Shown here: positions 58-20,000 of the stretch, piece after piece
How the letters are laid out: every line of letters starts with the position of its first letter
Position numbering within the stretch: the stretch's first letter is position 1
Program-made: the position numbers and the translations under genes
The notes under the pieces: generated by a model
Seen by the model: only the letters and a program-made list of their open reading frames with translations
Told to the model about the DNA's origin: nothing
Databases searched by the model: none
Assembly: GCA_010093995.1 (NCBI GenBank)
Contig: ML992527.1
Coordinates: forward strand, 56,106 to 76,105
DNA: 20,000 bases
Origin: Elsinoe ampelina
Taxonomy: Eukaryota
Direction of reading: 5' to 3'

Positions 58-951
58 TCTCCTAATCCTGCTTGCGCCGTTGTCGCATCTCCCACTATGG
101 AGAAGTCTAGTCGTTCTCCGATCGCCAAATGGCATATCGGTCACAGCTGCGCTGTTACTCGCTCTTTGTACACAATCACAGATCGCGACCATATACTATC
201 TCTGAGCATGCCCTCCATTCAAGCGACAAGGATCTATTGTACCCAAGCCTCCGCGGTTTGTTGACTACCTCAATCTGGCGCAGCTACTGTTACAGTGGAT
301 ATGCTCAACAGTTCTGTACGTCCATCCTTTCAATCACGATCAACGATGCCGTCTTTCTGACCAGTGCATATTGCACGCAGTCTAGCGTTCGTCCTCGTAG
401 CGCGTACACGTGCACAAGACGATCTGCAGCGGCATTCGACAACGAGCTCGACCAACGATACTTCCTTCCCATCGAATAAGACAGCAATCACGCTACTTGT
501 CCTTCATGCGACCCTTTGCATCTTCTGGGCGATTCTAGCCGGCCAGCCAAGAGACGACTGGCTTGATCTTCCCTTCGTCACTATCATGGGCATCAACGCA
601 TACGGGATCAATCCCATCATCACAGTCGTGACCGGAATCGCCTCAGCGCTACAGGTGCGAACGACTAGGGTAAGCCAGGGCCCATCCGCATTGAACCCGA
701 TGACTTTGCTGCCCTGCGCTGTCGTTTCCTTAGTTCTAGCAGTATCGTGGCCGTTCAGGTTCAAGTTGCCGCACAATCTCAAGTCTCATGGCCAGTTATG
801 GCTTCTGGAAGAGTGGTACCCCCTTGTAGGCTGGACTTGCGTCAATAATGCTGTCATTGCGATGGGGCAGTGTATTACGCTGTATGTTATGATGAGAAAG
901 AGCGACAGTGGGGTGCAGCTAAATGGAGAGAGACAAGCGTTACTAGCGTGA
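58..951 (+). pseudogene. Multi-pass membrane protein, PQ-loop-like fungal family; 5' end probably off-window; exons 58-315 and 381-951; in-frame TGA at 203-205 (pseudogene, null allele or sequence error)
   Basis: Branch CTAAT 43-47 and acceptor TAG 55-57 precede a frame reading LLILLAPLSHLPLWRSLVVLRSPNGISVTAALLLALCTQSQIATIYYL*ACPPFKRQGSIVPKPPRFVDYLNLAQLLLQWICSTVL. Donor GTACGT at 316, branch CTGAC 357-361 and acceptor CAG ending 380 (65-nt intron) join it in frame to the hydrophobic 364..951 ORF. The family call rests on a degenerate PQ-loop-like pattern (..SHLPLWRSL..RSPNGIS..) recalled from memory. Confidence 0.6.
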
Positions 952-1169
952 CCACAATCGTATCACAGGATCACCACAATCAGCGTTCACGTGAAGTAGA
1001 GCTGAAACAAACAACCATTTGCATTACATTTCAATCAAAAACTACCATTAACGCCTGTCAAGCAACGACCACAAGCATGCTCGATGGTCGGAGCTTGACT
1101 TTTTGAATAAGCTTCTCGATCAACAAGTGATCCAAGCTGTGTCCCCCATGTCCGAACGTTGTTACCCAA

Positions 1170-2718
1170 CTAGAACGAGATCTTCTTGCCCTTGAAGTCG
1201 CCGAAGCCACCTCTGTTGGTGGACTGGAAACCACCACGGCCGCCACCACGGCCGCCGCCACGACCACCGCGACCTCCTCCGCGACCGCCACGGTCATTGA
1301 ATCCGCCACGGCCACCACGACCTCCGCCGAAGCCACCACGTCCACGACCGCCGCGGGGGCTGTCACCAGTAGCGGGACGAGCACCAGCGAAATCGAGACG
1401 GACGTTGCGACCTCCAATGTCGGCACCATTGAGACCTTCGACGGCAGCCTGAGCTTCCTCAACTGTGGCAAACTCGACGTAGCCGAAGCCCTTCATGTTA
1501 CCAGAGTCGGGGTCGGTGGGAAGACGGACGCCATTGACGTTGCCGTACTCGGAGAATGCCGAAGTGATCATGTCCTGGTCCGCGTTGAACGAGATGTTGC
1601 CGACAAACACAGTGTTGCTTGGCTCATTGGGAGCTCTGTCACCAAACTTCTGAGCCCGGGCAGAGACCTGCTCGTTGTTGTATGAGCGGTCGGGGCGAAC
1701 CTTGCCGAAATCGATGTTGATCTCGCGGCCGTCGACTTGAGCACCCTGCTTGGCATCAAGAGCAGCAGTGGCACTCTCGACGTCCTCGAACTCGACGTAA
1801 CCGAAACCCTTTGAGCGGCCACTGTCGCGGTCGGTGATGATCCTGACGCCGACGATGGTGCCGAAGCCCTCGAACTCGCGGCTGAGCCAGTCCTCATCGA
1901 CGTTCCAGGACAGAGAACCAACGAAGAGGTTCTTGGATGGTTCGCTCAAAGGCTCTCCGTTAAGCTTGACACGCTTGACGGGGGTGGTAGTCTCGGTATC
2001 TGCCTTGCGCTTCTTCTGTTCAGGGGCCTTCTTCGCAGGCTTCTCCTCTTCCTCCTCGGAGCTGTCGCTATCGCTGTCGGCTTCAGAGTCGGATCCATCG
2101 CTGAGGGCACCGGTCTATACGATATCAGTCAAATTTAAATGCGTTGGGAGTCAAGCGTACCTTTACGGCTTCCTCTGCGGCCTCCTCCTCCGAGGAAGAA
2201 GCATCGGAATCAGACTCGTCGCTCTCGGCAGCCTTCTTGACGACCTTGCCGTTGGTGGCGGGCTTCTCCTCCTCATCAGACTCGGAGTCATCAGAAGAGT
2301 CGGAGCTGTCCTCCTTTGCAGCAGCCTTGGTAGTACCGTTGGCCTTGGCCTTGGGAGCCTCGACCTCGGACTCACTGGACGAGTCGGAGTCGCTGGACTC
2401 TTCCTTCTTTGCCTTGGTCGCCTTCTTTGCACCGTTGACCTTGGCAGGCTTCTCATCAAGGGACATCTCGCTGTCGCTATCACTGGCGCTGCTCGCAGAG
2501 CTGTCACTAGTGGCGCTATCGCTGTCAGACTCGCTCTTGACGGAGTCCTTGCGCTTCTTGTCGGATTTCTGGTGTGCTTTGGCTGCAGTCTTTGCAGTCG
2601 CCTTGCTCTTCTTGGTATCTTCAGCAGGCTTGGTCACACGACCAGCCTTGACGCTCTTGAGGGCAGCAGCGGGGGCCTCGGCCTTGACCGCCTTTGAGGA
2701 TGACTTGCTCTTTGCCAT
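1170..2718 (-). CDS. NSR1: Nucleolin-like nucleolar protein Nsr1/Gar2 (~500 aa); exons 2718-2161 and 2114-1170
   Basis: N-terminal Lys/Ala-rich and acidic Ser-Asp blocks, two RRMs (LFVGSL...KGFGYVEF; VFVGNI...KGFGYVEF), C-terminal RGG/GAR domain ending GDFKGKKISF. A 46-nt intron at 2160-2115 (GTACGC...CTGAT...TAG) joins ORFs 2125..2889 and 1170..1949 in frame. Confidence 0.95.
1200..1360 (-). repeat. Coding low-complexity RGG/GAR repeat of Nsr1
   Basis: Tandem CCACCACGG/CCGCCACGG-type units on + encode RGGRGRGGFGGGRGGRGGFNDRGGRGGGRGGRGGGRGGGRGGF. Confidence 0.9.
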
Positions 2719-2720
2719 TT

Positions 2721-3060
2721 CTGTACGAACGTTAGTATGTGTGTAATAGCACCACCTTGTCAGCAAGCAGTATATGCTTGACCAGAGTCGGGGCGACTCG
2801 TCTCGAAAAGCCCACAGGTATGTCAACGAAGTATACTCGTGACAACCAGATCCGTCGAGTGCTCTGTCGCTGGCCAAGTGTTCCCACAAATGCCTGACGA
2901 GAGCAGGAACCCCGCAGATGCCTCTTTGGAAGAAGCTGAAAGCCTACAAGCCCACTGGTACGGACACACGAGACCCGCCGCAGTCTCTGGTAGTATTCTG
3001 ACAACTCGATGACGAGTGTCTTATTTGAGGAAAAGCCCACTGAAAGTGTATGCAACGAAC
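2721..3060 (-). other. Probable 5'-UTR intron of NSR1 (3' end well supported, donor uncertain)
   Basis: Minus strand reads TACTAAC (2737-2731) GTTCGTACAG|AAATG: a perfect branch point and an acceptor 2 nt before the start codon. Candidate donors are GTTCGT at 3060 or GTGGGC at 3040, 2955 or 2815. Confidence 0.6.
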
Positions 3061-3109
3061 CGATGTGTATGTTATGATCCCTCTGTAATGCTCTCGGATA
3101 TCCCACGTG

Positions 3110-3396
3110 AAAGAATAGTCCCTGATTTCAAAGACTAGGTATGAGTGTGAGAAGGAAGAAAATGTGTCGCTCGAACTTTTTTTTTTTGTAAAAGGCGGCG
3201 GCGGGTCGTCCAAGCTCCCAGCGGCAGACACTGCAGAGGTTTTCTTCCCCGCTAGCGCCGTCCGACTCGGTGATCAAAACCCTATTGGCGGCAAGGCGGA
3301 CCCTGATTTCATGTCTCGAGCCACATCACCACGGCGGACTTCCACCCGCAGGTCTTGATCGTCAATTCACATGATGCATGCCTTTATGCGGTGACA
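3110..3396. promoter_or_regulatory. Divergent promoter region NSR1/ALG6 with poly(dA:dT) tract
   Basis: Head-to-head genes; T11 at 3177-3187; minus-strand pyrimidine-rich tract at ~3140-3165, typical of fungal transcription start regions; AAACCCTA at 3277-3284. Confidence 0.55.
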
Positions 3397-5268
3397 ATGG
3401 CTCAAACACCATCAAAGGCGTCACATACGCCTCGGAAGAAGAGAAGATCGTCAGGGGCGGCATTGAATTCTGACAATGGCGCTCTGATTCAAGATGGCTC
3501 TTTACAGTACCCAGCATTTCCTCTGGCTGCCTTTCTACTACCGGCCAAGGGGACAGTGTCACAATGGGTCTCAGTGCCGTTGATACTGATGGCAGTCGGT
3601 CTATTCAGATGGGCGTTGGGCTTCTGGGGCTACTCAGGTCGGTGAAGAGACTGCTAACGCTACTCTATTAGACTGACAATACCACAGGTCGAGCAAAGCC
3701 ACCCATGCATGGCGACTTTGAGGCTCAAAGACATTGGATGGAATTGACCACCAATCTGCCAGTCTCTCATTGGTACTTTTATGACTTGCAATGGTGGGGT
3801 CTGGACTATCCGCCGTTGACAGCATATCATAGCTGGATCTTGGGAACTATGCAAGTATTCAAGTAGGACGTCGCGGCATTCTTCTGACAATCATAGTGGA
3901 AATTATATCAACAAAGACTGGTTCGCCCTATACACATCTCGCGGCCTGGATGATCACTCGCTCAAGATTTACATGCGAGCAACAGTCTTGATCTCGGAAT
4001 ATGTCACACTCATCCCTGCAGCTATAGTATGCGTCCGAAGGCTCAGTCGATTATCCGGAGTCAGCTCCTGGGAAGCATCCATTGCTTTGACCGCTCTTCT
4101 TATGCAACCCGCAACACTTCTAATCGATCATGGCCATTTTCAGTACAATACTGTGATGCTTGGCTTCATCGTCTCAACCATTGCAGGAATACTCAGAGGA
4201 CATCCGGCTAGAAGCTGTTTGTATTTTGTCGCCGCTCTCGGATTCAAGCAGATGGCTCTCTTCTATGCGCCCGTTGTGTTCGCATATCTACTGGGTATCT
4301 GCATCTTCCCTCGGATCAATGTCATCCGCTTCTTGGCTATTGCTCTTTGCACGATCGCATCTTTCGCCGTGCTGTATCTTCCCTTTCTGCTGGGCGTCGC
4401 GTACGACTCGAAACGCCGGATACCACTGCCATCCGACCACGAGATCCCTCCACTGCTATCAGCGCTTCCGTTCGAGATCTCACGCCAGTCATACATCTAC
4501 CCTCTGGCTTTGCAGCTGGCGCAGTCCATTCATCGCATCTTTCCCTTCTCTAGAGGACTTTTCGAGGATAAAGTTGCAAACATCTGGTGCGCGATTCATT
4601 CATCTGGTCTACACAAGTTGACACGGTACGACTCATCACTGTTGTCACGAGCGGCGCTTTTGGTCACACTTGCTGCCATTACCCCATCCTGTTTCATCCT
4701 CTTTATCAAGCCTAAGCGGGCTTTGGTACCATGGGCATTCTCGTCTTGCGCATGGGGATTTTTCCTTTGCAGCTACCAGGTCCACGAAAAGAACGTGCTG
4801 CTACCTCTACTCCCCATGACACTACTTCTGGCTTCAGAAAGGGGACTTAAGCCAGACCTCCGAGCATGGATTGGATTTGCTAATATCCTCGGCACCTGGA
4901 CACTATATCCGCTGCTTCAGAGAGACGAACTCCGCGTTCCTTATTTCGTCCTAAATCTTCTATGGGCATGGCTGTTGGGGCTCCCTCCGACTTCACTCTC
5001 TGCATACTTTGGCCAGCAGGGATCATCTCTGAGCCTCTTGACGAAAGTTATACATCTTTCCTTCTATCTCGGCATGATTGCGTGGCACATTGGCGAAGCA
5101 TACGTGCCGCCGCCAGATCGTATGCCAGATCTCTGGGTTGTCGGCAATGCCGTCGCTGGAGCTGCAGGCTTTGGTATCTGCTACCTCTGGTGCACCTGGA
5201 ATCTCATCCTGAAGAGCGGACTTTTCGGATCGTCCACGCTTGAGGCTCCCACTAAGAAGACTCAATAG
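3397..5268 (+). CDS. ALG6: Dolichyl-P-Glc:Man9GlcNAc2-PP-Dol alpha-1,3-glucosyltransferase Alg6 (GT57); exons 3397-3637, 3688-3850, 3897-5268
   Basis: Spliced product contains [77 protein letters not shown] and [11 protein letters not shown]. Introns are 3638-3687 (GT-AG, 50 nt) and 3851-3896 (GC-AG, 46 nt). Confidence 0.95.
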
Positions 5269-5421
5269 GAATGCGAAGATGGAAAGTTGAGAATGATTGT
5301 ATTCTGTTGTACAATAGATACCCACGTATGAGCACTTTCTATAGGTCGACCAGGCCCTTTTGATAGTATATACGAGTCCTTTCAACCACAGATATAGCCT
5401 CTTCTAGCTCTTCCCGGTCAA

Positions 5422-5770
5422 TTATATGTTAAAGCCATATCCCTTCATGCATGTCTTGTACTGCGAAACCAGGTCGGAGCATTCCTTTTGAGGGTCGTTG
5501 GAGTTGGAGAACAGCATGCACTCGTCGCGAGCGCTCTTCTCATCCTTGCATACGCAGCAGGGCTGGTATCTTGTCAGGGTGGCTCGAGTCTCTTCGAAGT
5601 GTTCCATCGTACCTTTACTTTGGCCGCAGCATCTCCGGCGGGCTTGAGATCGGCGGCGAGATTGTTCGGCGGCGTGGCCGTCGCTGTGACGGAGTCAGTA
5701 TGAGAGTAGTCCTGACATAGATTTGACTAGACTCACAATCCTGTAATGATCTCGTCGCTGGAGCTGACAT
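5422..5770 (-). CDS. COX17: Mitochondrial copper chaperone Cox17 (~81 aa); exons 5770-5737, 5683-5613, 5562-5422
   Basis: Spliced product is MSAPATRSLQDSTATPPNNLAADLKPAGDAAAKVK-PCCVCKDEKSARDECMLFSNSNDPQKECSDLVSQYKTCMKGYGFNI, with the KPCCxC copper motif and twin Cx9C. Introns are GTGAGT...CTGAC...CAG (53 nt) and GTACGA...CTGAC...CAG (50 nt). Confidence 0.93.
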
Positions 5771-6109
5771 CTTGATCTTGCTGGGAATGTCGAGGATAGA
5801 GCGTGACCTTCGATGCGTCTTGGAATGCTCGACCCTGCTGAATAATTCTGCCGACTCTCGCCGACTTTGGTGCAGCACGTCACCGTCACAAATTGCGGCT
5901 CTGCGGTCCAAGCTGATCTTCTGCATGGAAGGGTCTCGATCAATTTTATCCCACGAGCAAGGCCCCACATAATTTGAGCTTGGTGCCCCTCGCTTGTGTA
6001 AACATTCAGACTTGATCAAATTATTTTTCAACCACGGTCATTTGGATCGAGTCAAACAACTATTCTGACCATCTCTAAAGAATTACCCTACCATCCGCTC
6101 GAGATCAAC
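5771..6109. promoter_or_regulatory. Compact divergent promoter COX17/RNA1 (~340 bp)
   Basis: Head-to-head start codons at 5770 (-) and 6110 (+); AT-rich stretch AAATTATTTTTCAA near 6018-6031. Confidence 0.5.
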
Positions 6110-7417
6110 ATGGCGAAGCTCTTCTCCCTCGAAGGCAAAGGCCTCAAACTCGACACCGCCGCCGACATTGAATCCCACCTCCAACCCCTCATCACCTCCA
6201 ACGACATCGAAGAAGTGCGCTTCCAAGGCAACACGCTCGGTGTCGAAGCCTGCGCCGCCCTCGCCCAAGTCCTCTCCACCAAACCCTCGATACGAGTACG
6301 TCCCCTATACCACGCCATCCCACTCCATGCCCCCCTCACTAACCCCTTCCTCCAGATCGCCAACCTAGCCGACATCTTCACCTCTCGCCTCCTCTCCGAG
6401 ATTCCCCCATCCCTCACCTCTCTCCTCGAAGCTTGCCTCTCCCTCCCCAACTTACACACCATCAACCTCTCGGATAACGCCTTCGGTCTCAACACAGTCG
6501 AGCCCCTTCGCCCTTTCCTCTCCCAACACGTCCCCCTCCAGCATCTTATCCTCAACAACAACGGCCTCGGCCCTGCGGCAGGCACTCTGGTCGCGGAAGC
6601 CCTAACGCAACTCGCCGCGCGCAAAGCCGCTGCCCGGCAAGAGGGGAAGGATGTCCCTGACCTCGAGACGGTGGTGTGTGGACGGAACAGGCTGGAGACG
6701 GGGAGCATGAAGGCTTGGGCGGAGGCGTATCGTGCGAACAACGGGGTGAAGGAGATAAGGATGGTGCAGAATGGGATCAGGCAGGAGGGGATCGTGGTGC
6801 TGCTTCGAGAAGGGTTGAGGCATGCGAAGAAGTTGGAGGTCGTGGATTTGCAGGATAATACGTTCACAGTAGTAGGAAGCCGGGCGTTGGCGGATGTAGT
6901 TCGAGGGGGCGCCTGGCCTGCGCTCAAGGAATTGGGCGTGGGGGATTGCTTGCTCAAAGCGAGTGGTGGGAGGGCAGTGTTCAGCGCGCTGGGGGAAGGG
7001 AAGACGAAGGAACTCGAGGTTATCAAGGCGCAGTACAACGAGGTGGATGCGGGGAGTCTCAAGGCTTTGGCAGAGGGGTTGGACGCGTTGCCGAAGTTGA
7101 GACGGGTAGAAGTGAATGGCAACAAGTTCGCGGAAGAGGATGAGAGTGTGGAGAAGATCAAAGCCGTATTGGATGAACGGAGAGAGAAGGCTGGAGAGGA
7201 CGAGGACGAGGAGCGGTGGGGCGTGGATGAGCTGGATGATTTGGAGGAGGAGGATAATGATGAGGAGGGAGAGGAAGACGAGGATGAGGAAGATGAAGAG
7301 GAGGAAGGGGAGAGGGTGGTCAAGGAGGCGGAGAGGGCGGAGGAGGAGCCTGTTGCTGCGGACCAGGATAAGGAGGTCGATGATTTGGCTGCGAAGTTGG
7401 GCAAGACGGGTATCTAA
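6110..7417 (+). CDS. RNA1: Ran GTPase-activating protein Rna1 (LRR domain plus acidic tail, ~415 aa); exons 6110-6295 and 6356-7417
   Basis: FSLEGKGLKLDT, GNTLGVEAC, ADIFTSRLLSEIP, INLSDNAFG, LNNNGLGP, CGRNRLE, QNGIR, DLQDNTFT and an Asp/Glu tail. A 60-nt intron at 6296-6355 (GTACGT...ACTAAC...CAG) is read through by the ORF track. Confidence 0.95.
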   Translation: MAKLFSLEGKGLKLDTAADIESHLQPLITSNDIEEVRFQGNTLGVEACAALAQVLSTKPSIRVRPLYHAIPLHAPLTNPFLQIANLADIFTSRLLSEIPPSLTSLLEACLSLPNLHTINLSDNAFGLNTVEPLRPFLSQHVPLQHLILNNNGLGPAAGTLVAEALTQLAARKAAARQEGKDVPDLETVVCGRNRLETGSMKAWAEAYRANNGVKEIRMVQNGIRQEGIVVLLREGLRHAKKLEVVDLQDNTFTVVGSRALADVVRGGAWPALKELGVGDCLLKASGGRAVFSALGEGKTKELEVIKAQYNEVDAGSLKALAEGLDALPKLRRVEVNGNKFAEEDESVEKIKAVLDERREKAGEDEDEERWGVDELDDLEEEDNDEEGEEDEDEEDEEEEGERVVKEAERAEEEPVAADQDKEVDDLAAKLGKTGI

Positions 7418-8007
7418 GCCACGCAGAGATGGAGGAGATTGAAGGGAATAATTGCTTGAAAGAGGAGAGACTTACAAATCGTTGGAAGTGGTCGAGTAAT
7501 CCTCGAGACTTACCTGGAAATGCTTAGATAGCCAGCGAATTGAGCCATATCATAGAATAATGCAGGGATTCTGAATCAGACTGGACACCGCGGCCGCCCA
7601 TATCGTCGAGTCGGGTATCCAGAGCTGAAACTAGAGAGATGGTCAGCAACCCTTCCCATCTCTTCATAAGTCGCATTGGAACGGGTCGCATCGGGTGTTG
7701 TCGCGTTGGCTGCCATCCCCATCGTCCATCCCAGTCCATGCGGTCATGCACACGCAACAAACCCGCCAGACCGTACACCGCTCTCAGTCGAAGAAAAAGC
7801 TCAGGATCCATTCCAAAGAATCTGTACACACAAGTCTCACAAGTCCCTCCAAGAATGCTTACACTCCATCGCAATGTAGGTCCCGTCCATGCCCGTGCAA
7901 TGCAATGCCAAACCCACCCAACTCCTCGCTTATACCAAATAACACCCAACCATGCCAGTCCAGAAATGCAATGCCTCAAAAGAACCCCAAATTCAACCCC
8001 ATTTGTA

Positions 8008-8023
8008 CAACCCAACCCAACCC
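8008..8023 (+). repeat. Short (CAACC)3 repeat inside a C/A-rich low-complexity tract at ~7900-8030
   Basis: CAACCCAACCCAACCC immediately past the stop codon of the 8024-8629 gene. Confidence 0.6.
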
Positions 8024-8629
8024 TCAGCAAATAGCCACATGCCTACTCTGCAAATGATCCACCAAATTCATGACCCTCTCCTTATGCACCTTTGCCCCCA
8101 ACCTCGCATGAAAAGCCGGCTCCCTCCTATGCGCCGCCAACCAAATATCATCCCCGACCCCGTCCTCCCAGGACAACATGAACCTCGTCAACCGGATCCT
8201 CTGCAGCGCCATGCGTTGCGCCGCCGACAACGCATACTTGAGGAATATCAACGTGTCCGACGACGAGAGCGAGAGGACGAACACGGTCTGGTACCACAGC
8301 TGGCGCGCGACGGCGGCGTGCAGGGTGCGGTTGACTCGTAGCAAGGCCAGCGGGTAGCCCGAGACGGACCAGCAGGTGCGGGCGGCGCCGGTGGTGAGGT
8401 CTGATTGGGAGAAGGAGGTGGAGGGGCGGCGTTTGACGTATACCGTGGAGTCGGAGTCGGCGCAGAGGTAGCCTGCGATTTTGCAGAGGATTTCGGTGGG
8501 GAGGTCGTCGAGGGTGGTGGTGCGCGGGGTGGAGGTGGGGGGTTTCAGGTGGAGGGTGTCGTAGTCGGTGTAGTATTTGTTTTTGATGACGGAGGAGACG
8601 GTGGGGGTCGTGTCGTCGTAGGGATACAT
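8024..8629 (-). CDS. Hypothetical 201-aa protein with an N-terminal F-box-like motif
   Basis: ATG-initiated single-exon ORF; TLDDLPTEILCKIAGYL resembles the F-box start (LxxLPxEIxxxI), followed by ALLRVNRTLHAAVARQLWYQTVF, a pattern common in fungal F-box-like proteins; pyrimidine-rich 5' leader on the minus strand. Confidence 0.7.
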   Translation of the reverse strand: MYPYDDTTPTVSSVIKNKYYTDYDTLHLKPPTSTPRTTTLDDLPTEILCKIAGYLCADSDSTVYVKRRPSTSFSQSDLTTGAARTCWSVSGYPLALLRVNRTLHAAVARQLWYQTVFVLSLSSSDTLIFLKYALSAAQRMALQRIRLTRFMLSWEDGVGDDIWLAAHRREPAFHARLGAKVHKERVMNLVDHLQSRHVAIC

Positions 8630-9110
8630 GGTAGGGATACGTGATTATGGGGGTATGCTGGATATGAGAGGGGGATGACAAGGAAAATGCAGTCGCGAGG
8701 GAAACAATATGACAATTATGCAAGAATGAAACATAGGAGAGGAAAAAGGTCATGTTTTAATGTTTGTCTCGCCCCCGGCCTCGGTAGGTGCGTGATCGTT
8801 TGCGGATGGTGTAAACGTGGACCAACGCTCAGATGCTGGAGGCGCAAACTTTGGTGCGAGGAAAATTGGGGCAATGAAGCCTGAGGAAACGCCGTTGCGG
8901 AAAATTGAATTTTCAAGAGTCAGAGGACCCAGTTCTATCCGCTCTCTGGCCGAATCTGCCTGGTCTGTCTCGCTGTTGGTTCCAGATAATAATACTGGGT
9001 CTGTCCGTTATCCGCATGTCGGAGATAGGTCCATGGCTGATATCTATCCCACGCTCAGAAAATTTCCCAGGGTCGTGGAAGATCTGCCATTACTGCAGTT
9101 AAAGTTTTGG

Positions 9111-10230
9111 CTAAGTGCCGACTCGCATTTGAGCACCTGCATATTTCTGCAGCCCGCGCAGGAAAACTTGGTAGCCGACCTCGTGATTGTCTGGAACGTG
9201 ACTATTCCCGAGATTAGCCGCATGTCACCCGACTTCGCTAGCACGTCAGTTGAAGGCCCAGAAAAAAACTTACAAGATCTCGCTCAGACGCACTTGCCAC
9301 GGGGGGTAACCGTCTAGAACCACAGACTCTCCAAACAGGATTAGTAAGTCGGGTTCGCCCATTACACTTTCGCTCAGCTCCGCATCAATGAGTTCTGAGG
9401 TGATATCTTCCGGGGCGAGTTTGTGCTTTTGGCTCATCTCCGCTAGCGTTTTGGTGAGGTCGACTAATGTACGTCTGCCGTCCGTTTCGGATAGTAGGAG
9501 AATAGATAGATGTGGCGGTGAGCCCGTCGATGGGTCGGGCGAGGAACTTGGCGGTGAAAAGGCTGGAACTTGGGGTGCTCGTAACGAGACGCTTGGTCTT
9601 GATGAATTGTCGACTCCGTAGTAGGACGAGATCGTTTTCGAGATCTGGCGGTGGAGGTATGGTAGGGATGTCTTCAACGCGCCTTGCCACTGTCAGCATG
9701 CCCTCTTGATTCCTGCAGACATACTCACCAGTCCTCTCATATATGCTCAGCATTGGGATACCAGCACAAGCCGTCCAGGCCGCACATTCACAGGCCTCGT
9801 TGATCAAGTCTTCGAGAGCCGCGTCATCGGTCCGACCATCCAGGTCCAAAGCAATACTCAGATGATTCGGCATCTTTGTGAACCCCTTGACATCCTTCTG
9901 AATCAACTCTGGCGTGCGGTGATGGTGATACATGACGTCCATCGATCTGCTGACCATGTTCCGATATGCTCGTCGGACCCTGTAGAAGACGGAGAAGAAC
10001 CATTGCATGACATTGAAAACAAAAACATAAAGAGCAGTCTTCAGGAATGTCCGTATAGGTTTCTTCCGTCCAGGTTGATGATTGCTCCGTGATCTCGACC
10101 TTCCCTTGGTGGTCACGGGTCCATTTGGTAGATATGGCTTGATGAGTCGTTCTCTCTCCTCCGCAGACAATTTGTGTCCATGTTCGTCGGTGTCGGTACG
10201 CAGAAATGCAGCTTGTCTAAGGCCGACCAT
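9111..10230 (-). CDS. NUS1: Dehydrodolichyl diphosphate synthase (cis-prenyltransferase) subunit Nus1 (~333 aa); exons 10230-9729, 9682-9274, 9201-9111
   Basis: N-terminal transmembrane segment, HHRTPELIQKDV...PNHLS, AGIPMLSIYERTG, EPDLLILFG, LDGYPPWQVRLSEIF, and a C-terminal RxG motif (AQMRVGT*). Introns are 9728-9683 (46 nt) and 9273-9202 (72 nt). Confidence 0.93.
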
Positions 10231-10783
10231 TTTGATAGTGATGTGATTGTGCCAATCGTGGTAGAGATAGGAAGACGAGAAACAATTATGAAGCCAAAGA
10301 CTTCTGACAATTGATGCCTGTTGTCTACCAGTCAGGCGAGACGTCAGATGTGGCTGAAGTACCCATTACGAGTACTTCTTGACGAACAAGAGGCGATCGG
10401 ATTCACAGCCTCAACATGGTTCACGTCCAACCTTTTCTCCAACCTCTTTTCCGCCCTGACGCGTTTGCGCCAAGGTGGACACTTGACAAGCCACAATTCG
10501 CGTCGGGCCGAACATGCTTGCAGAGCCGCAATCACCGACCAAGTGGAGCTCTAACCTCGCGACTGGAATAATGGCCTGCCGGTATGTTTGACAGAACACT
10601 CTGATCTGGGAATCAATAAGAATCGAATAACTGTACAGGTCTCAACAGTCAGATCACAGCCTATCTACCAAGTCGCTTCAACATTCCCGTCCACTCGATC
10701 ATGATGCTATGAAACGACCTCGCGACTCGTTGTCGCATTGAGAGCACCATTGATAGCGGTCAGGGAGATTGGTAGCAAGCAAT

Positions 10784-13382
10784 ATGGCGCCCAACTCGGC
10801 AGACACCGCCTCGATATTGTCCGCCCATACCACGAATGCAGCCCGCCCGCTCACAGGCCGGACGGCCAACTTCACCTTGGAGACATTCTCGAGTCAGGAC
10901 TTCATTGTCAAGGACTTTGTAGAGGCACTCTCGGAGTCGGCGGCGCCGGCATCGCGCAAATCGCAGCCTGCCAATGCGCAGCACACAGCACAAGCTTTTG
11001 ACCCAAAGCCGTTGATCCGCGCATTCGAGCAAGCTCTCAATGGACTCAAGAACCTCAGCGAAGATCTGGAGATGCGTGAGAACGAGATTAGCGGGAGTGT
11101 CAGAAGAGCAGAAGCCCAACACAATCAAAATGTTCGAGCACGGGAGAGGGAGCTGGAGCAGACGGTAGATTCTTTCAAAGGGCTTGAAAGAAGTCTGGAC
11201 GGCGACGGAGAGGCAGGAGGCAATGCTGCAGTCAGGATAGGTGAACGACTGGAAGAGTTGGACAAACAGCGGCAACGCGCTCAGGATGCAAAGTTCATAC
11301 TTCAATGCTGGCTGGAAGTAAATCATAGAGGAGACTTGTCAAGTTTGGAGGACGTTCGACGATTGGGCGGAGGCGAGGGCAAGGTACGATGTGCACACAT
11401 CGCTCGACAGCTTCTCAAGATTAGCCAACGACTCGAGCCTGCGACCAACGTCCACCGGACTAATGGTGTCAATGGAGATCACTCCAATGGCAAGAGACAG
11501 CCCAAGGAAGTGATCGAGAAGTTCCTGGAAGGCTTGGAAAAGGACCTCTTGAAGCAATTCGACGATTCATATCGAAGGCAGAACTTTGAAGGCATGCGAG
11601 AATGTGCGACAGCACTTCGAGATTTTGGCGACGGTGCAAGTGTCATGGGCCTGTTCGTCAACCAACATCAGTTCTTCATCGATCGAAGTCAGCTGGTGAC
11701 CGAGGAGGTCTCGTCAGAATCGGACATGTGGGATCGATTGGCAGACCCGGATGCGGATCCACCCGGAGTCGAGCCAACACTGCAATCATTGATTGATGAA
11801 GTCAAACTTGTCGCGCAAGAGGAGAGTTTCATCATCAAACGTGCATTCCCGTACTACGAGGAAGTGCTTGGGCGATTCATTCAACGAGTATTCCAGCAGT
11901 CGATACAGCAGAAGCTTGAGCAGGTACTAGATAAAGCAAGCTCGGTCTCCTCGCTCGCTTTCCTACGCTCTTTGCAATCGTCAAAGAGCTACATATCAAC
12001 ACTCGTCGAAGATCTCAAGACACATGGCCTTACCGAGCATCCGGAGCCAGCATCTGCTACCACTGCCGCCATCCTTGACCAACAACTTGATGACTTGTTT
12101 GTACCATATTTTGCAGGCTCGTCTTATATTGAACGAGAGAAGAGAAGCTTGGAAGAGCTGTACTCGTCACTGCTCTTCAAATTCACAACTTATCATGTAA
12201 GTATAGTTGTAAGCTTTATGAGGCTCCACTGATCGTTTTCAGTCGCGCCGACGGAAGACACCTACTTCGTATCTCGGATCTCTACAAGCACGCAGTAAAG
12301 AAATGATTCACAAGGCACAAGAAGCGTATCTCGATCGACTAGACTCAACAGAAATGTCCTCCTCACAAAAGAAGATGCTTGTTCGACTTGCTGGCATCTC
12401 CTCCTCGTCGCTCAGTAACAGGAACGAAATCGAAGTCACCGACGAAGACGGAGAGCTCAGCTTGCCGTATGCTAAGCGCATGCTAAAGTGGCTGGCAGAA
12501 GGCGTCGGTAGAGGTCTCGAGCTTGCAGGCGGACACGAGACGCCCAAAGACGTTCGCGAATTGCTCGGCTTGCTCGTTGGCAGCATGGGGGAGATCTACC
12601 TTGAAACAGCACTGGATGCTCAAGTGGAAGCAGTGACGGCTTATGAGAATTCCAAGACGGAACCCGAGTACTCTTACCTATCAGATCTTCGCAGCAGCGT
12701 AAGCACCCTTCATCTACTGGTCGTCACGGTTCAAACACTACTCATGCCATTGGCCGCCACCAACCTGACGATCCGGCGGGATCTGGACAAGACGATCAAC
12801 ACGTTCGTTGACCGTATAGAAGGCAAGATCGACACGGTGTTGCAAAAGACGATTGACTCTGCATTAGCTTGGACAGCAAAGCTTCTTTCACAGCAGAAGA
12901 AAACGGACTTCCGGCCGAGAGATGAAGCGACCCTGAACCTGGAGCAGCTGCAGACCCCTACTTGCCTGTCAACCTACAATTTTTTGAACAAGCTACAGAA
13001 GAACGCCTCGAGTGCCCTATCTGGACGTGTACTGGACGGCTTCTCGTTGGAGCTAGCGCTCGGTCTACGATCTCTTCTGTTCATCCACTTCAAATCATTC
13101 CAGGTCAGCCAAGCAGGTGGTATCTTGGTCACCCAGGACATGATGAAGTATGTGGAGCTGCTGAGGTCATGGAGCCTGCCAGAAACCTTCAACCCCAGCA
13201 TCGAGGTTTTGGCAGAGATCCCTAACCTGTTCTCCCTCAAGGCAGATGCGCTGAAAGATCGTCTCAAGGGTGTTGGCAGCCAGTCTCTGGCAGGAATAGA
13301 CGGGCGAGATCTCAGACCCTACGTTCAGCGGCGAGACGATGCAAACACGGTCACAGTCCAGAGCGCCCTCAACTCACTGTAG
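10784..13382 (+). CDS. SEC10: Exocyst complex component Sec10 (~850 aa); exons 10784-12196 and 12243-13382
   Basis: FSSQDFIVKDFVEAL, FDPKPLIRAFE, RIGERLEELD, FVNQHQFFI, FIQRVFQQSIQ, QKKTDFRP, TPTC. A 46-nt intron at 12197-12242 (GTAAGT...CTGAT...CAG) joins ORFs 10769..12232 and 12303..13382 in frame. Confidence 0.93.
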
Positions 13383-14065
13383 AAAGCAGACCATGACGAA
13401 TGAAATGTTTAAAGAACACACCAAGTTCGTCAGATTTTTCCACACTGACGCTATCGACTTCTCCACTCTGATCTCACAGGTCCTGTCTGTGCACGTGGAG
13501 GGGCACGGGTTGGATGTGAAAAATTGCACACGTTGGTGCAAGAGACACACCTTTCACCCCGCCATTTCTCAAGTGCCGCCACACCGTAAAGTCGCCGCAT
13601 GAAACTCCTGCTTTCGACAAAGTTTCCCGTATCTTTGCACCACATCCACACTATCGCAATCTCCATGCCTTGTACAAACCCATCGATGCAACACAAGCGA
13701 ACTTACTAGCTTCGATGACAACTTCCGATTCCCCTATCTGCACACGATAGACAAGCTGAATATCCCTGATAGCCAAGAGTGTGATCTGCAGGCTAGTATC
13801 GGAAGGACCGGGAAAGTCTTATTTGTCAGACCAAAAATCGCGCAAAACGAACCACGAGTGGCATGTTGCCGGACATGGTGTTTCTGCTGTTCCTTTCTCT
13901 TGGGACACTGCATGCTGCACTTCATGAGCGTTGGAAGCTGGAGACGCTTGTTGCGCACAATTTGACATCGATATCGTCTACCTTCTCATACTGTGAACAA
14001 GTGAAAAAACACAATCTTTGCACCTGGAAAGATCACAAATCGGTTGGCTCCGAGGTCTAGATTAA

Positions 14066-16555
<2,490 letters not shown>

Positions 16556-16942
16556 ATTTTCACAGTCATGAGAACGGACGAGTATCCTTGATGATGAAGG
16601 GGATGGAGGCTTCGGTGTATCGCTACTCGACAAGCGTAGATAGATTATGTTAACACGATTGCTTAGTCCAATTATCCAAGTTCGCCTCGTGCACGAGTGT
16701 TCTATGCAAATCCTCAAACTACGTGATTTAAGGAGATTGTCCGCCCGTTATGATTATATACACACTTTCGGGAGTCTTTGTGCAGCCACGATCATCTGGT
16801 GTGGTGAATAGTGCCGCTCTCAAGGTTCTTCTATAGGGCAATTGAGCCGCATGTCGTCGGTCTTGGCAAAACGTCAAATGAAGCTCCGAAAATTGTTCTG
16901 TTCTGTCTCTCTCAGGTACGTATACTCCCCGCTCATCCAAAC

Positions 16943-18721
16943 ATGAGCGACTCAGATGAGCCTGAAATTGACGTCGATCAAGAAGCCCTGCAGAAGTTTC
17001 TGGGCACGAGCTCCTTTGGTAGACAAGACCGCAGGGGCAACGTGGAGAGGCAGATCGCCGAAACCAAGCTCAAGTCGCAGAAGAATGGCACAGCTGCCAA
17101 AGACAAAGCGCAGCACACAAACGGTGATGAAAGCGATGCTAGCGGAAAGGCAGGGGACAAGGGTGACTCTTCAGACTCAGACTCAGATGACGACTCGGAC
17201 GACGACGACGAACCAGAGTTCCCTGTCACGCATTCCCTCAAGATCCCTACACATTCTCGAGCAGTAACGGCAGTCAGTCTCGACCCTTCTGGAGCGCGAC
17301 TAGTCACTGGATCTCTGGATTCGACGCTCAAGTTCCACGATCTAGCGTCCTTGACACCAACCACAATCCGAGCATTCAAATCAGTGGACCCCTCGAATCC
17401 TCGACCAACTGCGGCCTCGACTGCAGAGTCACATCCGATCAATGCAGTACACTTCAATCCATTGTCGCCGTCACAGCTACTGGTGATCGATGCGACTGCG
17501 CAACCGAAGATTGTGACCAGGGATGGAGAGGTACAGGCCGAGTTCGTGAAGGGGGACATGTACCTGAGGGACATGAACAATACCAAGGGGCACATCAGCG
17601 AGGTCACGAGTGGAGTGTGGCACCCATCGCAGAGGGATATATGTGTTACGGCCGGTACGGACAGCACGTTACGTATCTGGGACATCAATCAGCCACGGCA
17701 TCAACGAGATGTGATTGTCTTCAAGAGCAAGGCTGTAGGCAGCGCAGGGCGGAGCAGGATGACGGCTGTTGGGTGGGGAACTGGTGGCGAAGGCAGTGTG
17801 TTGGTGGCAGCAGCTATGGACGGCACACTTGTCATGTATGGCGGCGAAGGACCATTCTCACGACCGGCTGGAGAAATCAAAGCCGCTCACGAACCTGGCA
17901 CATGGACGTCTGGACTTGATATCAGTCCTGACGGTCGACTGATTGTCACTCGGGGTGGCGATAACACAATCAAAACCTGGGACATCCGCAAATTCAAGTC
18001 CCCCATCACCATCATTACCCACGAATCCACCTCCTCCCAATATCCCACTAGCAATATCCGCTTCTCCCCGACAGGCAGCTCCATCCTCACTGGCTCTTCC
18101 TCCGGCTCTCTCCATATTCTCAATCCCGCCACCCTCCGCCCAGAAAGCATCACCCCGGTCACCCCCTCCTCCCCCCTGATCACCGTTCTCTGGCACGCCA
18201 AACTCAACCAAATCATCACCGGCTCCGCCAACTCGTCCACTCACATCCTCTACGACCCCACGACTTCCTCCGCAGGCGCAGTCGGCATCGTCTCCCGCGC
18301 CCCCAAACGCAGGCACATCGACGACGACCCCTCCCTAACAACCGACACATCACTATCCCTCTCCGACGCCATGATCCTCCCAGGCGGCACCGTCCCCTCC
18401 GCCGCCTCCTTCGCTGCGCGCCATCCTAACGTCGGCCTGACCGCGAGCGGGAAGAGTCGCGATCCGCGCAGACCACATCAGCCCGCTGTGACGCCGTTTG
18501 CGAAGAGTAACCCGGACGCGGAGTATGTGAGGAGGGAAATTCCATTGAGTGGGATGCGCGATGAGGATCCGAGGGAGGCGCTGTTGAAGTATGCGACGAA
18601 GGAGGGGGAGGGAGGAGTGTTTACGAAGGCGTGGGAGACGACGCAACCGAAGACGCAGTATGCGGAGTTGAGTGATGATGAGGACGACGAGGGAAGGGAG
18701 GGAAAGAGGGTGAAGCGGTGA
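16943..18721 (+). CDS. WDR70: WD40-repeat protein, WDR70/GAD-1 family (592 aa), apparently intronless
   Basis: Acidic N-terminus with SSFGRQ; WD repeats (HSRAVTAVSLDPSGARLVTGSLD, TAGTDSTLRIWD, RGGDNTIKTWD); family-typical KGDMYLRDMNNTKGH and DEDPREALLKYA. Confidence 0.85.
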   Translation: MSDSDEPEIDVDQEALQKFLGTSSFGRQDRRGNVERQIAETKLKSQKNGTAAKDKAQHTNGDESDASGKAGDKGDSSDSDSDDDSDDDDEPEFPVTHSLKIPTHSRAVTAVSLDPSGARLVTGSLDSTLKFHDLASLTPTTIRAFKSVDPSNPRPTAASTAESHPINAVHFNPLSPSQLLVIDATAQPKIVTRDGEVQAEFVKGDMYLRDMNNTKGHISEVTSGVWHPSQRDICVTAGTDSTLRIWDINQPRHQRDVIVFKSKAVGSAGRSRMTAVGWGTGGEGSVLVAAAMDGTLVMYGGEGPFSRPAGEIKAAHEPGTWTSGLDISPDGRLIVTRGGDNTIKTWDIRKFKSPITIITHESTSSQYPTSNIRFSPTGSSILTGSSSGSLHILNPATLRPESITPVTPSSPLITVLWHAKLNQIITGSANSSTHILYDPTTSSAGAVGIVSRAPKRRHIDDDPSLTTDTSLSLSDAMILPGGTVPSAASFAARHPNVGLTASGKSRDPRRPHQPAVTPFAKSNPDAEYVRREIPLSGMRDEDPREALLKYATKEGEGGVFTKAWETTQPKTQYAELSDDEDDEGREGKRVKR

Positions 18722-19371
18722 TGTGCGTACAGCATGTTGATGAGAAAGCATGGACATGAACAGGGCGGTGGAACGGAGACAAGAAGAAGCGAACGGGGAG
18801 AGGAGACAAGTATAAGCCTGTGGTATTTGACGTCTAGGGATGAGCAGCCTCATGGATCACCAGGTCTGCAACGCCATCATAATGTCAGCCTTGAGAGGTT
18901 TCGTCTCGGGAGAAATGAGCGTGCCGCCACCCCCACTGGCAGACCACAGTGAGCTTTACACAATTTCGTCGAGCTCGAACCTGATGCGGAACTCTGTTCT
19001 CGACAGACGAGTGTATCCACTAGGCGTAGGACGGGTGAGGTATTGACCATCAATATGCGTCGAGCCATACTTGGCATTAGCAAGAGTCGAAGTGGGGGGA
19101 GCGCATCTCTTGTCTCTTGTCGGTGCCGAGCTTGGACAGGCACATTCTTGGGATTCAATGACACTGCTAGAGCAGAGGGCGTCGACCAGCACGGCAAATC
19201 GTCTGCGCCAGGGTGCGCCGTTGGATGGCTGACACGAATGACTCAGGAGATGCGCCGCATCCTCCAAGCACCATGTAGAAAGCCGTAGCACAAGGTGAAA
19301 GCATTTCCCGACACGAGTGCCTCTCCATACTGAGCTTTACCTGCGACAAACACAGTGCCGTTCATCCACCC

Positions 19372-20000
19372 TCACTGACCCCCATCGACACTAACAACCA
19401 CCTTCCCCCTAGCCCTCCCCGTATCCAACCTGGCAAACGCCTCCCTCACCTCCCCAAACCCAAATACGCTATCCACCGCAATCCCCTCGGCGTCCAACCC
19501 CAATGCCTCCTCGAGAAACCTCCCCTTGACCTCCAGGTTCACACAATCATAACTGGGCCCCAACCCCACCTTCCCCAGCAAACTCCGCACCACCATCCTC
19601 GGGTTCCACAAGTACGTCAACGCACCCCCCATGTCCGCCCGAGACGTCTTGTCCCCGACGATAGTCACGTACCGCGGCGCGAGACCCAGACACTGCGTCC
19701 CGCCGACGCAGTCGATGATGGCGTCCGGGTCGAAAGCGCGGAGGGCGTCGGGGACCGAGGAGGAGGAGGAGGTGTAGTCCACCACTGTGTCGGCGCCGAG
19801 GGAGCGCACGAAGGAGGTGTTGCGGCTGGAGCAGGTGGAGAGGAGGGTCCAGCTTTTTTTGCGGGCGAGGTGGATGGTGTAAATGCCTGTTGCGGAGGAG
19901 CCGCCGAGGATGGCGACGCGGGGGTGGGGGTTGGTGCGGGGGAGGTAGGGGGTGATGGCGGTGATGCAGGTGCGGGCGGTGAGGAAGACGAGGGGGAGGG
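19372..20000 (-). CDS. MDR-superfamily NAD(P)-dependent oxidoreductase (quinone/enoyl reductase-like, Yim1/RTN4IP1-like); 5' part off-window
   Basis: Frame is open from the window edge: LPLVFLTARTCI...RVAILGGSSATGIYTIHLA...TCSSRNTSFVRSLGADTVVDY...DAIIDCVGG...VDSVFGFGEVREAFARLDTGRARGKVVV; Rossmann glycine motif and typical MDR C-terminus. Confidence 0.88.
   Translation of the reverse strand, partial: LPLVFLTARTCITAITPYLPRTNPHPRVAILGGSSATGIYTIHLARKKSWTLLSTCSSRNTSFVRSLGADTVVDYTSSSSSVPDALRAFDPDAIIDCVGGTQCLGLAPRYVTIVGDKTSRADMGGALTYLWNPRMVVRSLLGKVGLGPSYDCVNLEVKGRFLEEALGLDAEGIAVDSVFGFGEVREAFARLDTGRARGKVVVSVDGGQ

Follow-up and report, generated by a model that had tools for sequence, protein, structure and literature searches.

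Abrupt C-to-G switches of strand composition within four genes of Elsinoe ampelina, a probable extreme form of the polar bias of fungal genes

Four genes in a stretch of 20,000 nucleotides (nt) of Elsinoe ampelina, a plant-pathogenic ascomycete of the Dothideomycetes (contig ML992527.1 of assembly GCA_010093995.1, forward-strand positions 56,106 to 76,105, called here the window) switch abruptly from a C-rich to a G-rich composition along their length. They are RNA1, which encodes RanGAP, an F-box-like gene, WDR70 and a gene of the zinc-binding dehydrogenase family (MDR). We estimate at about 0.6 the probability that these are four cases, in an extreme two-block form, of the gene polarity described by McLean & Tirosh in 2011, with strand-asymmetric mutation linked to the transcription unit as the likeliest origin. 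The polarity itself has already been described for fungal genes (PMC3315797) and is thus not a new kind of element. Within the literature searched, what appears new is the near-saturated step from amino to keto bases, the choice between A and T included, together with units starting away from the gene start and a choice of affected genes that is conserved between lineages.

On the forward (+) strand, the GC skew measured in 200-nt windows goes from −0.675 to +0.70 over 6300–7300 (RNA1), from −0.625 to +0.667 over 7900–8700 (F-box), from −0.633 to +0.579 over 18000–18800 (WDR70) and from −0.653 to +0.60 over 19400–20000 (MDR). A preliminary description of this DNA had pointed to the switches through eight counts in 60-nt lines, all of which proved exact: C31/G5 at 6361–6420 and G28/C7 at 6781–6840 in RNA1, C24/G4 at 7981–8040 and G31/C5 at 8521–8580 at the F-box locus, C34/G7 at 18121–18180 and G28/C9 at 18601–18660 in WDR70, C32/G5 at 19441–19500 and G39/C5 at 19921–19980 in MDR. 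When long runs are defined by an absolute skew above 0.3 over at least 300 nt of the + strand, each unit appears as a C run followed by a G run (5951–6600 and 6651–7500 for RNA1, 7701–8250 and 8301–8800 for F-box, 17901–18450 and 18501–18850 for WDR70, 19251–19700 and 19701–20000 for MDR). Beyond these eight blocks, the 20-kb window holds no such run. The process is localised and looks the same on either strand, as the preliminary description had proposed, with C preceding G in each gene. Since a C-then-G unit is its own reverse complement, it shows as a C-rich 5′ part and a G-rich 3′ part for a gene on either strand. The four switches are genuine and statistically overwhelming.

The units are built alike, with a C plateau of 450–650 nt, a transition of about 120–180 nt (in 60-nt bins) and a G plateau of 350–850 nt, the outer edges being sharp. 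The transition zone is a local GC maximum (0.62–0.70). All four switches lie within 14 kb, in two pairs whose members are 1.25–1.6 kb apart. Apart from CGCCGC, which is itself present 29 times in the window, no motif common to the switch points was found. The observed/expected CpG ratio at the four switches is 0.95–1.43, with no sign of CpG depletion or of a methylation footprint. A palindrome, an inverted duplication or an assembly fold-back could be ruled out, the inverted repeats being just 14–30 nt long and imperfect (71–93% complementarity).

A check at fourfold-degenerate sites had been suggested in the preliminary description; the skew does not vanish there, and it is at these sites that the switch is strongest, codon positions 1 and 2 being skewed too. 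Summed over RNA1, F-box and MDR, the C blocks (246 fourfold sites) hold 189 C, with 14 A, 31 G and 12 T, and the four G blocks summed (223 sites) hold 142 G, with 22 A, 33 C and 26 T. The fourfold skew moves from −0.75 to +0.58 in RNA1, from −0.58 to +0.57 in F-box and from −0.84 to +0.59 in MDR, and it reaches +0.85 in the tail of WDR70. The two-fold sites follow the same direction from C block to G block, pyrimidine sites passing from C71:T3 to C36:T66 and purine sites from A25:G6 to A17:G97. Third-position keto skew rises from −0.7 to −1.0 up to +0.4 to +0.8, and the third-position AT skew changes sign in RNA1 (+0.23 to −0.15), F-box (+0.86 to −0.68) and MDR (+0.43 to −0.77). The blocks are thus A/C-rich and then G/T-rich, both transition pairs flipping together. 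The GC content of third codon positions (GC3) is 0.7–1.0 in the skewed units, versus about 0.5 in the neighbouring genes SEC10 and ALG6.

This composition is independent of coding. Shuffling synonymous codons within each gene, the other check proposed at the outset, produced no such switch: the observed third-position valley was reached in 0 of 5000 shuffles for each of RNA1, F-box, WDR70 and MDR (z of 10.5, 8.6, 7.3 and 9.6, respectively). The skew also extends outside coding sequence. The RNA1 intron (6296–6355, + strand, GT..AG) is C-rich like its flanking exons (A11 C32 G5 T12, skew −0.73); upstream regions read on the gene's own strand have a skew of −0.37 for RNA1 and −0.60 for F-box, and the 3′ regions of the skewed genes range from +0.27 to +0.42. 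Since the skew is present in the intron, in the untranslated regions (UTRs) and in the non-coding segment 7651–8023, and is highest at fourfold sites, it is not a translation effect. Nor is it ordinary optimal-codon use, since the C blocks take A-ending Lys, Glu and Gln codons, whereas the catalase-peroxidase (KatG)-like gene of the same window prefers G-ending ones (G100:A15 at two-fold purine sites).

The behaviour of the RanGAP gene in other fungi was followed in a metagenome scan using a RanGAP alignment, which yielded 80 fungal loci (613 kb in total). For 79 loci, a contrast was taken as the fourfold skew over residues 165–345 minus that over residues 1–150. The window gene is the most extreme (+1.38), followed by L079 (+1.35) and L034 (+1.21). 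The contrast has a median of +0.17; it is positive in 66 loci, exceeds 0.5 in 19 of them and exceeds 0.8 in 13, and near-duplicates occur among the strong loci. In the strong loci the switch falls between residues 105 and 203, and the 57 weaker ones show on average a drift from −0.3 to −0.5 up to +0.2 to +0.4. Among the RanGAP orthologues, seven introns could be inferred (two in strong loci, five in weak ones), and they share a single position.

The preliminary description had regarded the switches as confined to convergent gene pairs, and this does not hold. RanGAP flips despite a downstream gene on the same strand in L021 and L032 (a 2EXR-family gene) and in L008 (an MFS transporter), and flips as well with a convergent neighbour in L056 and L028, while two other convergent pairs of the window, at 58–3090 and 3100–6031 (orientation taken from splice-joint strands), have no strong switch. 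Eight of the 11 window genes belong to convergent pairs, and the association with the switch is not significant (hypergeometric 70/330 = 0.21). Where SEC10 (L021, L032, L056) or ALG6 (L028) lies next to RanGAP, it is unskewed, its GC3 being about 0.5, and the window copies behave alike. The switch thus goes with the gene and not with its neighbourhood, and a particular pairing of gene orientations is not required.

The polarity extends beyond RanGAP. In a set of 62 fungal metagenome loci without duplicates (422 kb), strong 300-nt switches within open reading frames (ORFs) are C-to-G in 12 cases and G-to-C in one, versus 11 and 19 outside ORFs; the window itself has four and one within ORFs. 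Of 116 long ORFs from the window and other fungal contigs, 101 have a higher third-position skew in their last third than in their first (median difference +0.31), and strong steps are C-to-G in 13 cases versus G-to-C in four. A wrong choice of strand would leave all these signs unchanged, because a C-to-G unit is its own reverse complement. The distance from step to stop codon varies from 192 to 1047 nt in 13 ORFs, and a fixed anchor at about 220–320 nt before the stop, which had first been hinted at, was thus not upheld. The MFS transporter ORF of L008 (2019–3596, + strand) displays two successive third-position C-to-G waves resembling WDR70, with values per 40 codons of −0.8, −0.6, +0.3, +0.8 and later −0.6, −0.8, −0.5, +0.2, +0.7. 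A simple gene-end model does not account for two waves in one gene.

The same pressure is visible in proteins. The G-minus-C gradient of amino-acid composition along RanGAP is +0.48 to +0.56 in four Elsinoe/Sphaceloma proteins, versus +0.17 to +0.38 in 12 other ascomycetes and, in addition, +0.38 in Myriangium. Likewise, the amino-acid score of the WDR70 G block minus that of its C block is +0.29 to +0.40 in five Elsinoe/Sphaceloma sequences and −0.03 to +0.28 in 15 others. The pressure is therefore common to the family and strong enough to alter protein composition. Compared with the collinear contig of a relative, the divergence is 9.9% for RNA1, 9.7% for F-box, 10.9% for WDR70 and 12.2% for MDR, versus 5.1–8.9% for the other pieces. 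Judged from these alignments, silent sites of the skewed genes are not unusually conserved.

The published polar bias provides the closest known counterpart. McLean & Tirosh reported that the coding strand of fungal genes is biased towards C at the 5′ end and towards G at the 3′ end, in most fungi examined, filamentous ascomycetes among them (PMC3315797). The bias was seen at fourfold sites, reached promoters, 5′UTRs and 3′UTRs, shifted amino-acid usage, and affected many but not all genes (PMC3315797). The window agrees with it in sign, in its presence at fourfold sites, in its reach into UTRs and promoters, in the amino-acid shift and in affecting some genes only, the polarity of WDR70 being restricted to its last ~850 nt. 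The published bias consists of averaged ramps with an intermediate middle and an AT skew essentially flat along genes (PMC3315797), whereas single genes of the window show two plateaus of ±0.6–0.9 separated by a 120–180-nt step, and their silent-site choice between A and T flips too. We treat this last point as a difference of form and not of kind. The window units differ further in that they may start inside a gene (WDR70) and may occur twice in one ORF (the L008 transporter), and in that different lineages agree on which genes are affected and which are spared, a point absent from the 2011 paper. Two candidate causes were given there, either mutational regimes specific to phases of RNA polymerase II (Pol II) transcription, or an avoidance of C that paces Pol II through limitation in cytidine triphosphate (CTP) (PMC3315797). 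Our literature search found nothing later explaining the 5′-C/3′-G polarity, and nothing on this pattern in Elsinoe.

Other known skews look less similar. In human genes, G/C strand asymmetry is reported also to mark the ends of transcription units, a G-rich coding strand at the 3′ end being linked to termination, and the coding strand to be G-rich just past the start site (PMC3787257, as cited in PMC4911931). This R-loop type of promoter skew, that of mammalian CpG islands, shares with the window its link to transcription-unit ends but differs in sign at the 5′ end, where the window coding strand is C-rich. The rule for bacterial origins, C-rich then G-rich on the top strand (summarised in PMC3315797), has the same sign and the same strand symmetry as the window units. 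These units, however, extend over hundreds of bases, occur several times in 14 kb, are anchored to genes and have a far larger amplitude.

A mutational origin of the skew, linked to transcription, is what we infer from these data. It is favoured because the polarity is independent of coding and linked to genes, because the ends of the RNA1 unit match those of one transcript, and because silent divergence is not reduced. In such a scheme, the strand that gathers A>G and C>T transitions would be the coding one in the 3′ block and the template one in the 5′ block. Their joint occurrence on one strand would correspond either to deamination of that strand or to G·T mispairs on the newly made strand. 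In one possible route, the template strand would undergo repair synthesis in early elongation and the non-template strand would be exposed later on; overlapping sense and antisense transcription might be another, although the RNA contigs are unstranded and antisense transcription is thus a candidate only. The process would belong to the same class as the mutational proposal of McLean & Tirosh, with a target strand that changes along the unit. A more specific version, which we put forward only tentatively, is that the skew is the scar of a mutational process switching its target strand at a set point in the transcription unit, with a strength heritable for each gene and conserved across ascomycetes. 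It might take the form of early repair synthesis on one strand, the template, followed by late deamination of the other, or of sense and antisense transcripts that overlap fully.

Several observations fit poorly with this mutational explanation. A plain start-distance model accounts neither for WDR70, where the C block begins 1060 nt into the coding sequence (CDS), nor for the two-wave L008 transporter ORF, and the variable distance of the step from the stop codon (192–1047 nt) leaves it without a single anchor. Only four of the 11 window genes are affected. The conserved set of affected genes would fit gene-specific selection on RNA equally well. In the C blocks, G exceeds A at fourfold sites (31 to 14), yet A exceeds G at two-fold sites (25 to 6), a mismatch that a context-free mutation equilibrium does not predict. 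The excess in divergence is small and confounded by protein constraint, and there is no excess in rate relative to another relative, X12, for which ALG6 (10.3%) and SEC10 (9.8%) are close to RNA1 (11.1%).

Selection acting on the RNA or on transcription is the first alternative to consider, and in our view an unlikely one. Here the nascent transcript would stay free of local structure owing to its A/C-rich 5′ block and G/U-rich 3′ block; in variants of this proposal, RNA:DNA hybrids would be avoided early and favoured near termination, or Pol II would be paced through CTP limitation. An adaptive hypothesis of this kind has been published (PMC3315797), and the skew of the intron and UTRs is compatible with it, as they belong to the pre-mRNA. 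Different lineages share the set of affected genes, with RanGAP inside it and SEC10 and ALG6 outside. The mean minimum free energy (MFE) over 80 nt is −12.9 kcal/mol for RNA1 and −14.4 for F-box, about a third weaker than the −20.8 of global shuffles; this weaker folding, however, follows directly from composition and is thus not independent evidence. Keeping two bases almost wholly out of hundreds of silent positions, in ordinary genes without codon bias, would need implausibly strong selection per site, which would moreover have to override the choice of amino acids, and the silent divergence from the relative is not lowered in the skewed genes. Selection for a specific fold-back over long range, the C-rich 5′ half of an mRNA pairing with its G-rich 3′ half, had also been proposed in the preliminary description and now looks very improbable. 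Although 66% of the predicted MFE pairs join the two halves in RNA1 and 69% in F-box, shuffling within halves gives such pairs nearly as often (63% and 58%). The shuffles used were mononucleotide ones, within-half and global, with N=6 for each, a type that flatters the native sequence. The RNA1 MFE (−536.7) is modestly lower than that of within-half shuffles (−513.0 ± 7.6) but not below that of global ones (−528.5 ± 13.1), and the F-box MFE (−380.2) is below neither (−383.7 ± 6.4 and −398.2 ± 8.3). The short imperfect inverted repeats mentioned above also argue against a selected fold-back.

Two further suggestions of the preliminary description invoke DNA transactions centred on the switch. 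At a hotspot of breaks or gene conversion located there, outward repair synthesis would enrich G and T while biased conversion would raise GC. The sign would fit outward synthesis on both strands, given the standard geometry of strand-annealing repair, and the arms of 350–850 nt are comparable in size to resection or conversion tracts. The GC peak at the switch and the high GC3 of the units point the same way. The skew, in contrast, keeps a plateau level as far as its sharp outer edges and peaks well away from the centre (−0.81 at 18001–18060), with no decay over distance. The excess of A over G (25:6) at two-fold purine sites of the C blocks contradicts a simple GC-biased conversion, as does that of T over C (66:36) at two-fold pyrimidine sites of the G blocks. 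The centre lies in coding sequence, at a similar place of RanGAP in distant lineages, and the centres share no motif apart from the common CGCCGC. The hotspot is thus weakened to the point of being improbable. Fixed bidirectional replication origins inside the genes would account for a sign identical to that of the bacterial origin switch, but are extremely improbable. The switches number four in 14 kb and their arms, 0.3–0.85 kb long, end abruptly, which is not the scale of replicons, and the amplitude of ±0.6 is far above that of replication skews. The switch recurs in RanGAP of other lineages among different neighbours, and so does not depend on chromosomal position, and the polarity within ORFs is linked to genes.

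The mutational reading, if correct, would mean that silent-site composition records where the switch point falls in each gene, and silent sites might even mark unannotated antisense or internal transcripts, as in the 3′ unit of WDR70 or in the L008 transporter. Whatever the cause, the choice of genes affected or spared, alike in distant lineages, constrains any mechanism for a polarity published in 2011. In these four genes the signal is near-saturated, changes over about 150 nt and takes in an intron as well as non-coding DNA, which makes them useful test objects. Their switch points can thus be located to within ~100 nt and compared with marks of Pol II phases, R-loops, antisense transcripts and repair maps. 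A practical consequence concerns annotation: the spurious long antisense ORFs that accompany the units matter for ORF-based gene callers and for analyses of codon usage and selection in these fungi.

The structure of the units can be detailed gene by gene, switches being placed by D, the skew contrast between adjoining 300-nt stretches. The RNA1 CDS (6110–6295 and 6356–7417, + strand) was delineated by Pfam and homology and by the intron joints of spliced contigs, the joint 6295>6356 being present in runs X3 and X4. Contigs of these two runs are taken as RNA assemblies since they are spliced; they are unstranded, and convergent genes are merged in them. The C/A-rich block (5951–6600, + strand, run mean skew −0.45, fourfold C71/G10 of 98) covers the upstream region or 5′UTR, exon 1, the intron and the start of exon 2. 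The switch zone at 6540–6700 has its largest contrast at 6616 (D=+1.01), with a GC content of 0.65 and a CpG ratio of 0.95, and the cumulative CDS skew is minimal at CDS nt 465 (residue 155). The G/T-rich block (6651–7500, + strand, run mean skew +0.53, fourfold G61/C16 of 106) includes the remaining CDS up to the stop at 7417 and the 3′UTR (7418–7535, skew +0.33). The whole unit (~6000–7500) matches the extent of the spliced RNA contig (~6057–7535). The RanGAP protein of the window is the NCBI Elsinoe ampelina entry, apart from an intron translated in one of them, and the next closest proteins are those of E. fawcettii (78%), E. australis (76%) and Sphaceloma murrayae (69%).

The F-box-like gene lies on the reverse (−) strand (CDS 8024–8629, 201 amino acids), with its switch near 8239 (D=+0.88) and fourfold sites of C61/G16 of 82, then G18/C5 of 26. 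The Pfam F-box-like match (E=7.5e-4) is under the curated cut-off; orthologues bear the name F-box domain-containing. These orthologues are 181–241 residues long, so the end of the CDS is placed at 8024, and the segment 7651–8023 (− strand) lies beyond every orthologous protein. This 3′UTR-like region is G/T-rich on the gene strand (skew +0.39), lacks GC3 periodicity (0.57/0.53/0.46, versus 0.84 at CDS third positions) and has 1-nt indels relative to relatives at 7766 and 7831; the most C-rich F-box line of the preliminary description, 7981–8040, is mainly within it. It also contains an ORF of 168 codons rich in W, G and R. On the other side, the 5′UTR or upstream region (8630–8800, − strand) is C-rich on the gene strand (skew −0.60 over 8630–8760).

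In WDR70 (CDS 16943–18721, + strand), the C/A-rich block (17961–18450) starts abruptly within the CDS, with a G-to-C contrast of D=−0.82 at 17961 and a 60-nt skew that falls from −0.03 (17941) to −0.81 (18001), that is, within one bin. Its third-position skew is −0.5 to −0.9. The switch is near 18444 (D=+0.92), and the G/T-rich block (18451–18850, + strand) comprises the last ~90 codons and the 3′UTR (18722–18850, skew +0.42), fourfold sites in the last 80 codons being G24/C2 of 32. The strong unit is thus limited to the last ~850 nt and starts at ~18000, ~1060 nt past the ATG; the first ~1060 nt are near balance, with a weaker wave at 17200–17900. The MDR gene (19251–20000, − strand) is partial, with a 3′UTR-like part at 19251–19371 and CDS at 19372–20000 (Pfam ADH_zinc_N_2, E=4.2e-13). 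Its switch is near 19696 (D=+0.99) and its unit extends past the window edge. Fourfold sites are C57/G5 of 66, then G39/C10 of 59, and the third-position keto skew is −1.0 over the first 30 codons that the window contains.

Long ORFs on the opposite strand are a side product of these units. An antisense ORF of 438 amino acids (6088–7404, − strand) mirrors the 435-residue RNA1 frame, and further antisense or spurious ORFs cover the units at 17858–18316, 18353–18853 and 7524–8030 (all − strand). Both strands are free of stops in the skewed units because of their composition, and long ORFs there look like artefacts.

The unskewed genes identified by Pfam or homology are ALG6, SEC10, a gene for an RRM protein and the KatG-like gene, the last of which the preliminary description had left unmentioned. 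SEC10 (10769–13382, + strand) has no switch, its GC3 being ~0.5 and its third-position skew trendless within ±0.5, and 4557 of 5000 codon shuffles reach the observed value. The KatG-like gene (14075–16555, + strand; an 826-codon ORF with two stretches of Pfam peroxidase) has none either: its bias towards C-ending codons is uniform (fourfold C196 T126 A39 G37) and 4946 of 5000 shuffles reach the observed value. In the same test, ALG6 and the RRM gene do not stand out either. The impression of the preliminary description that ALG6, NUS1 and SEC10 are balanced therefore stands for ALG6 and SEC10; the label NUS1 itself was not confirmed, the ORFs tested giving no Pfam match. The KatG-like gene also has the deepest RNA contigs and the second-lowest divergence from the relative's contig (6.0%). 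The ALG6 intron at 3851–3896 (+ strand) has a GC..AG boundary instead of GT..AG, as seen in spliced contigs from two runs.

The gene order around RanGAP varies between loci. SEC10 (L021, L032, L056) or ALG6 (L028) is found upstream of RanGAP, in arrangements unlike that of the window, and in Dothideomycetidae sp. 11243 the locus tags of RanGAP, F-box and WDR70 are near-consecutive (046940, 046950, 046980). The proximity of RanGAP, SEC10, ALG6, F-box and WDR70 suggests an old microsynteny. In L028, the gene convergent with RanGAP (7844–9730, − strand) encodes an OTT_1508-like deaminase domain (Pfam E=1.4e-20), which is probably a coincidence, though the skew has a deamination-like signature.

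Between WDR70 and MDR, 18851–19378 is the sole sizeable part of 958–20000 that is unaligned to the relative's collinear 96.7-kb contig, whose pieces stop at 18850 and restart at 19379; the depth of X12 is zero over 18677–19343. This segment is a fast-evolving or replaced spacer between two skewed genes. Lastly, 1201–1400, within the RRM-protein gene (− strand), has a GC content of 0.70 and an AT skew of +0.40, and loose ends and multiple contigs accumulate at 1230–1350 in all runs; it is probably a low-complexity Gly/Arg-rich repeat common to other genes.

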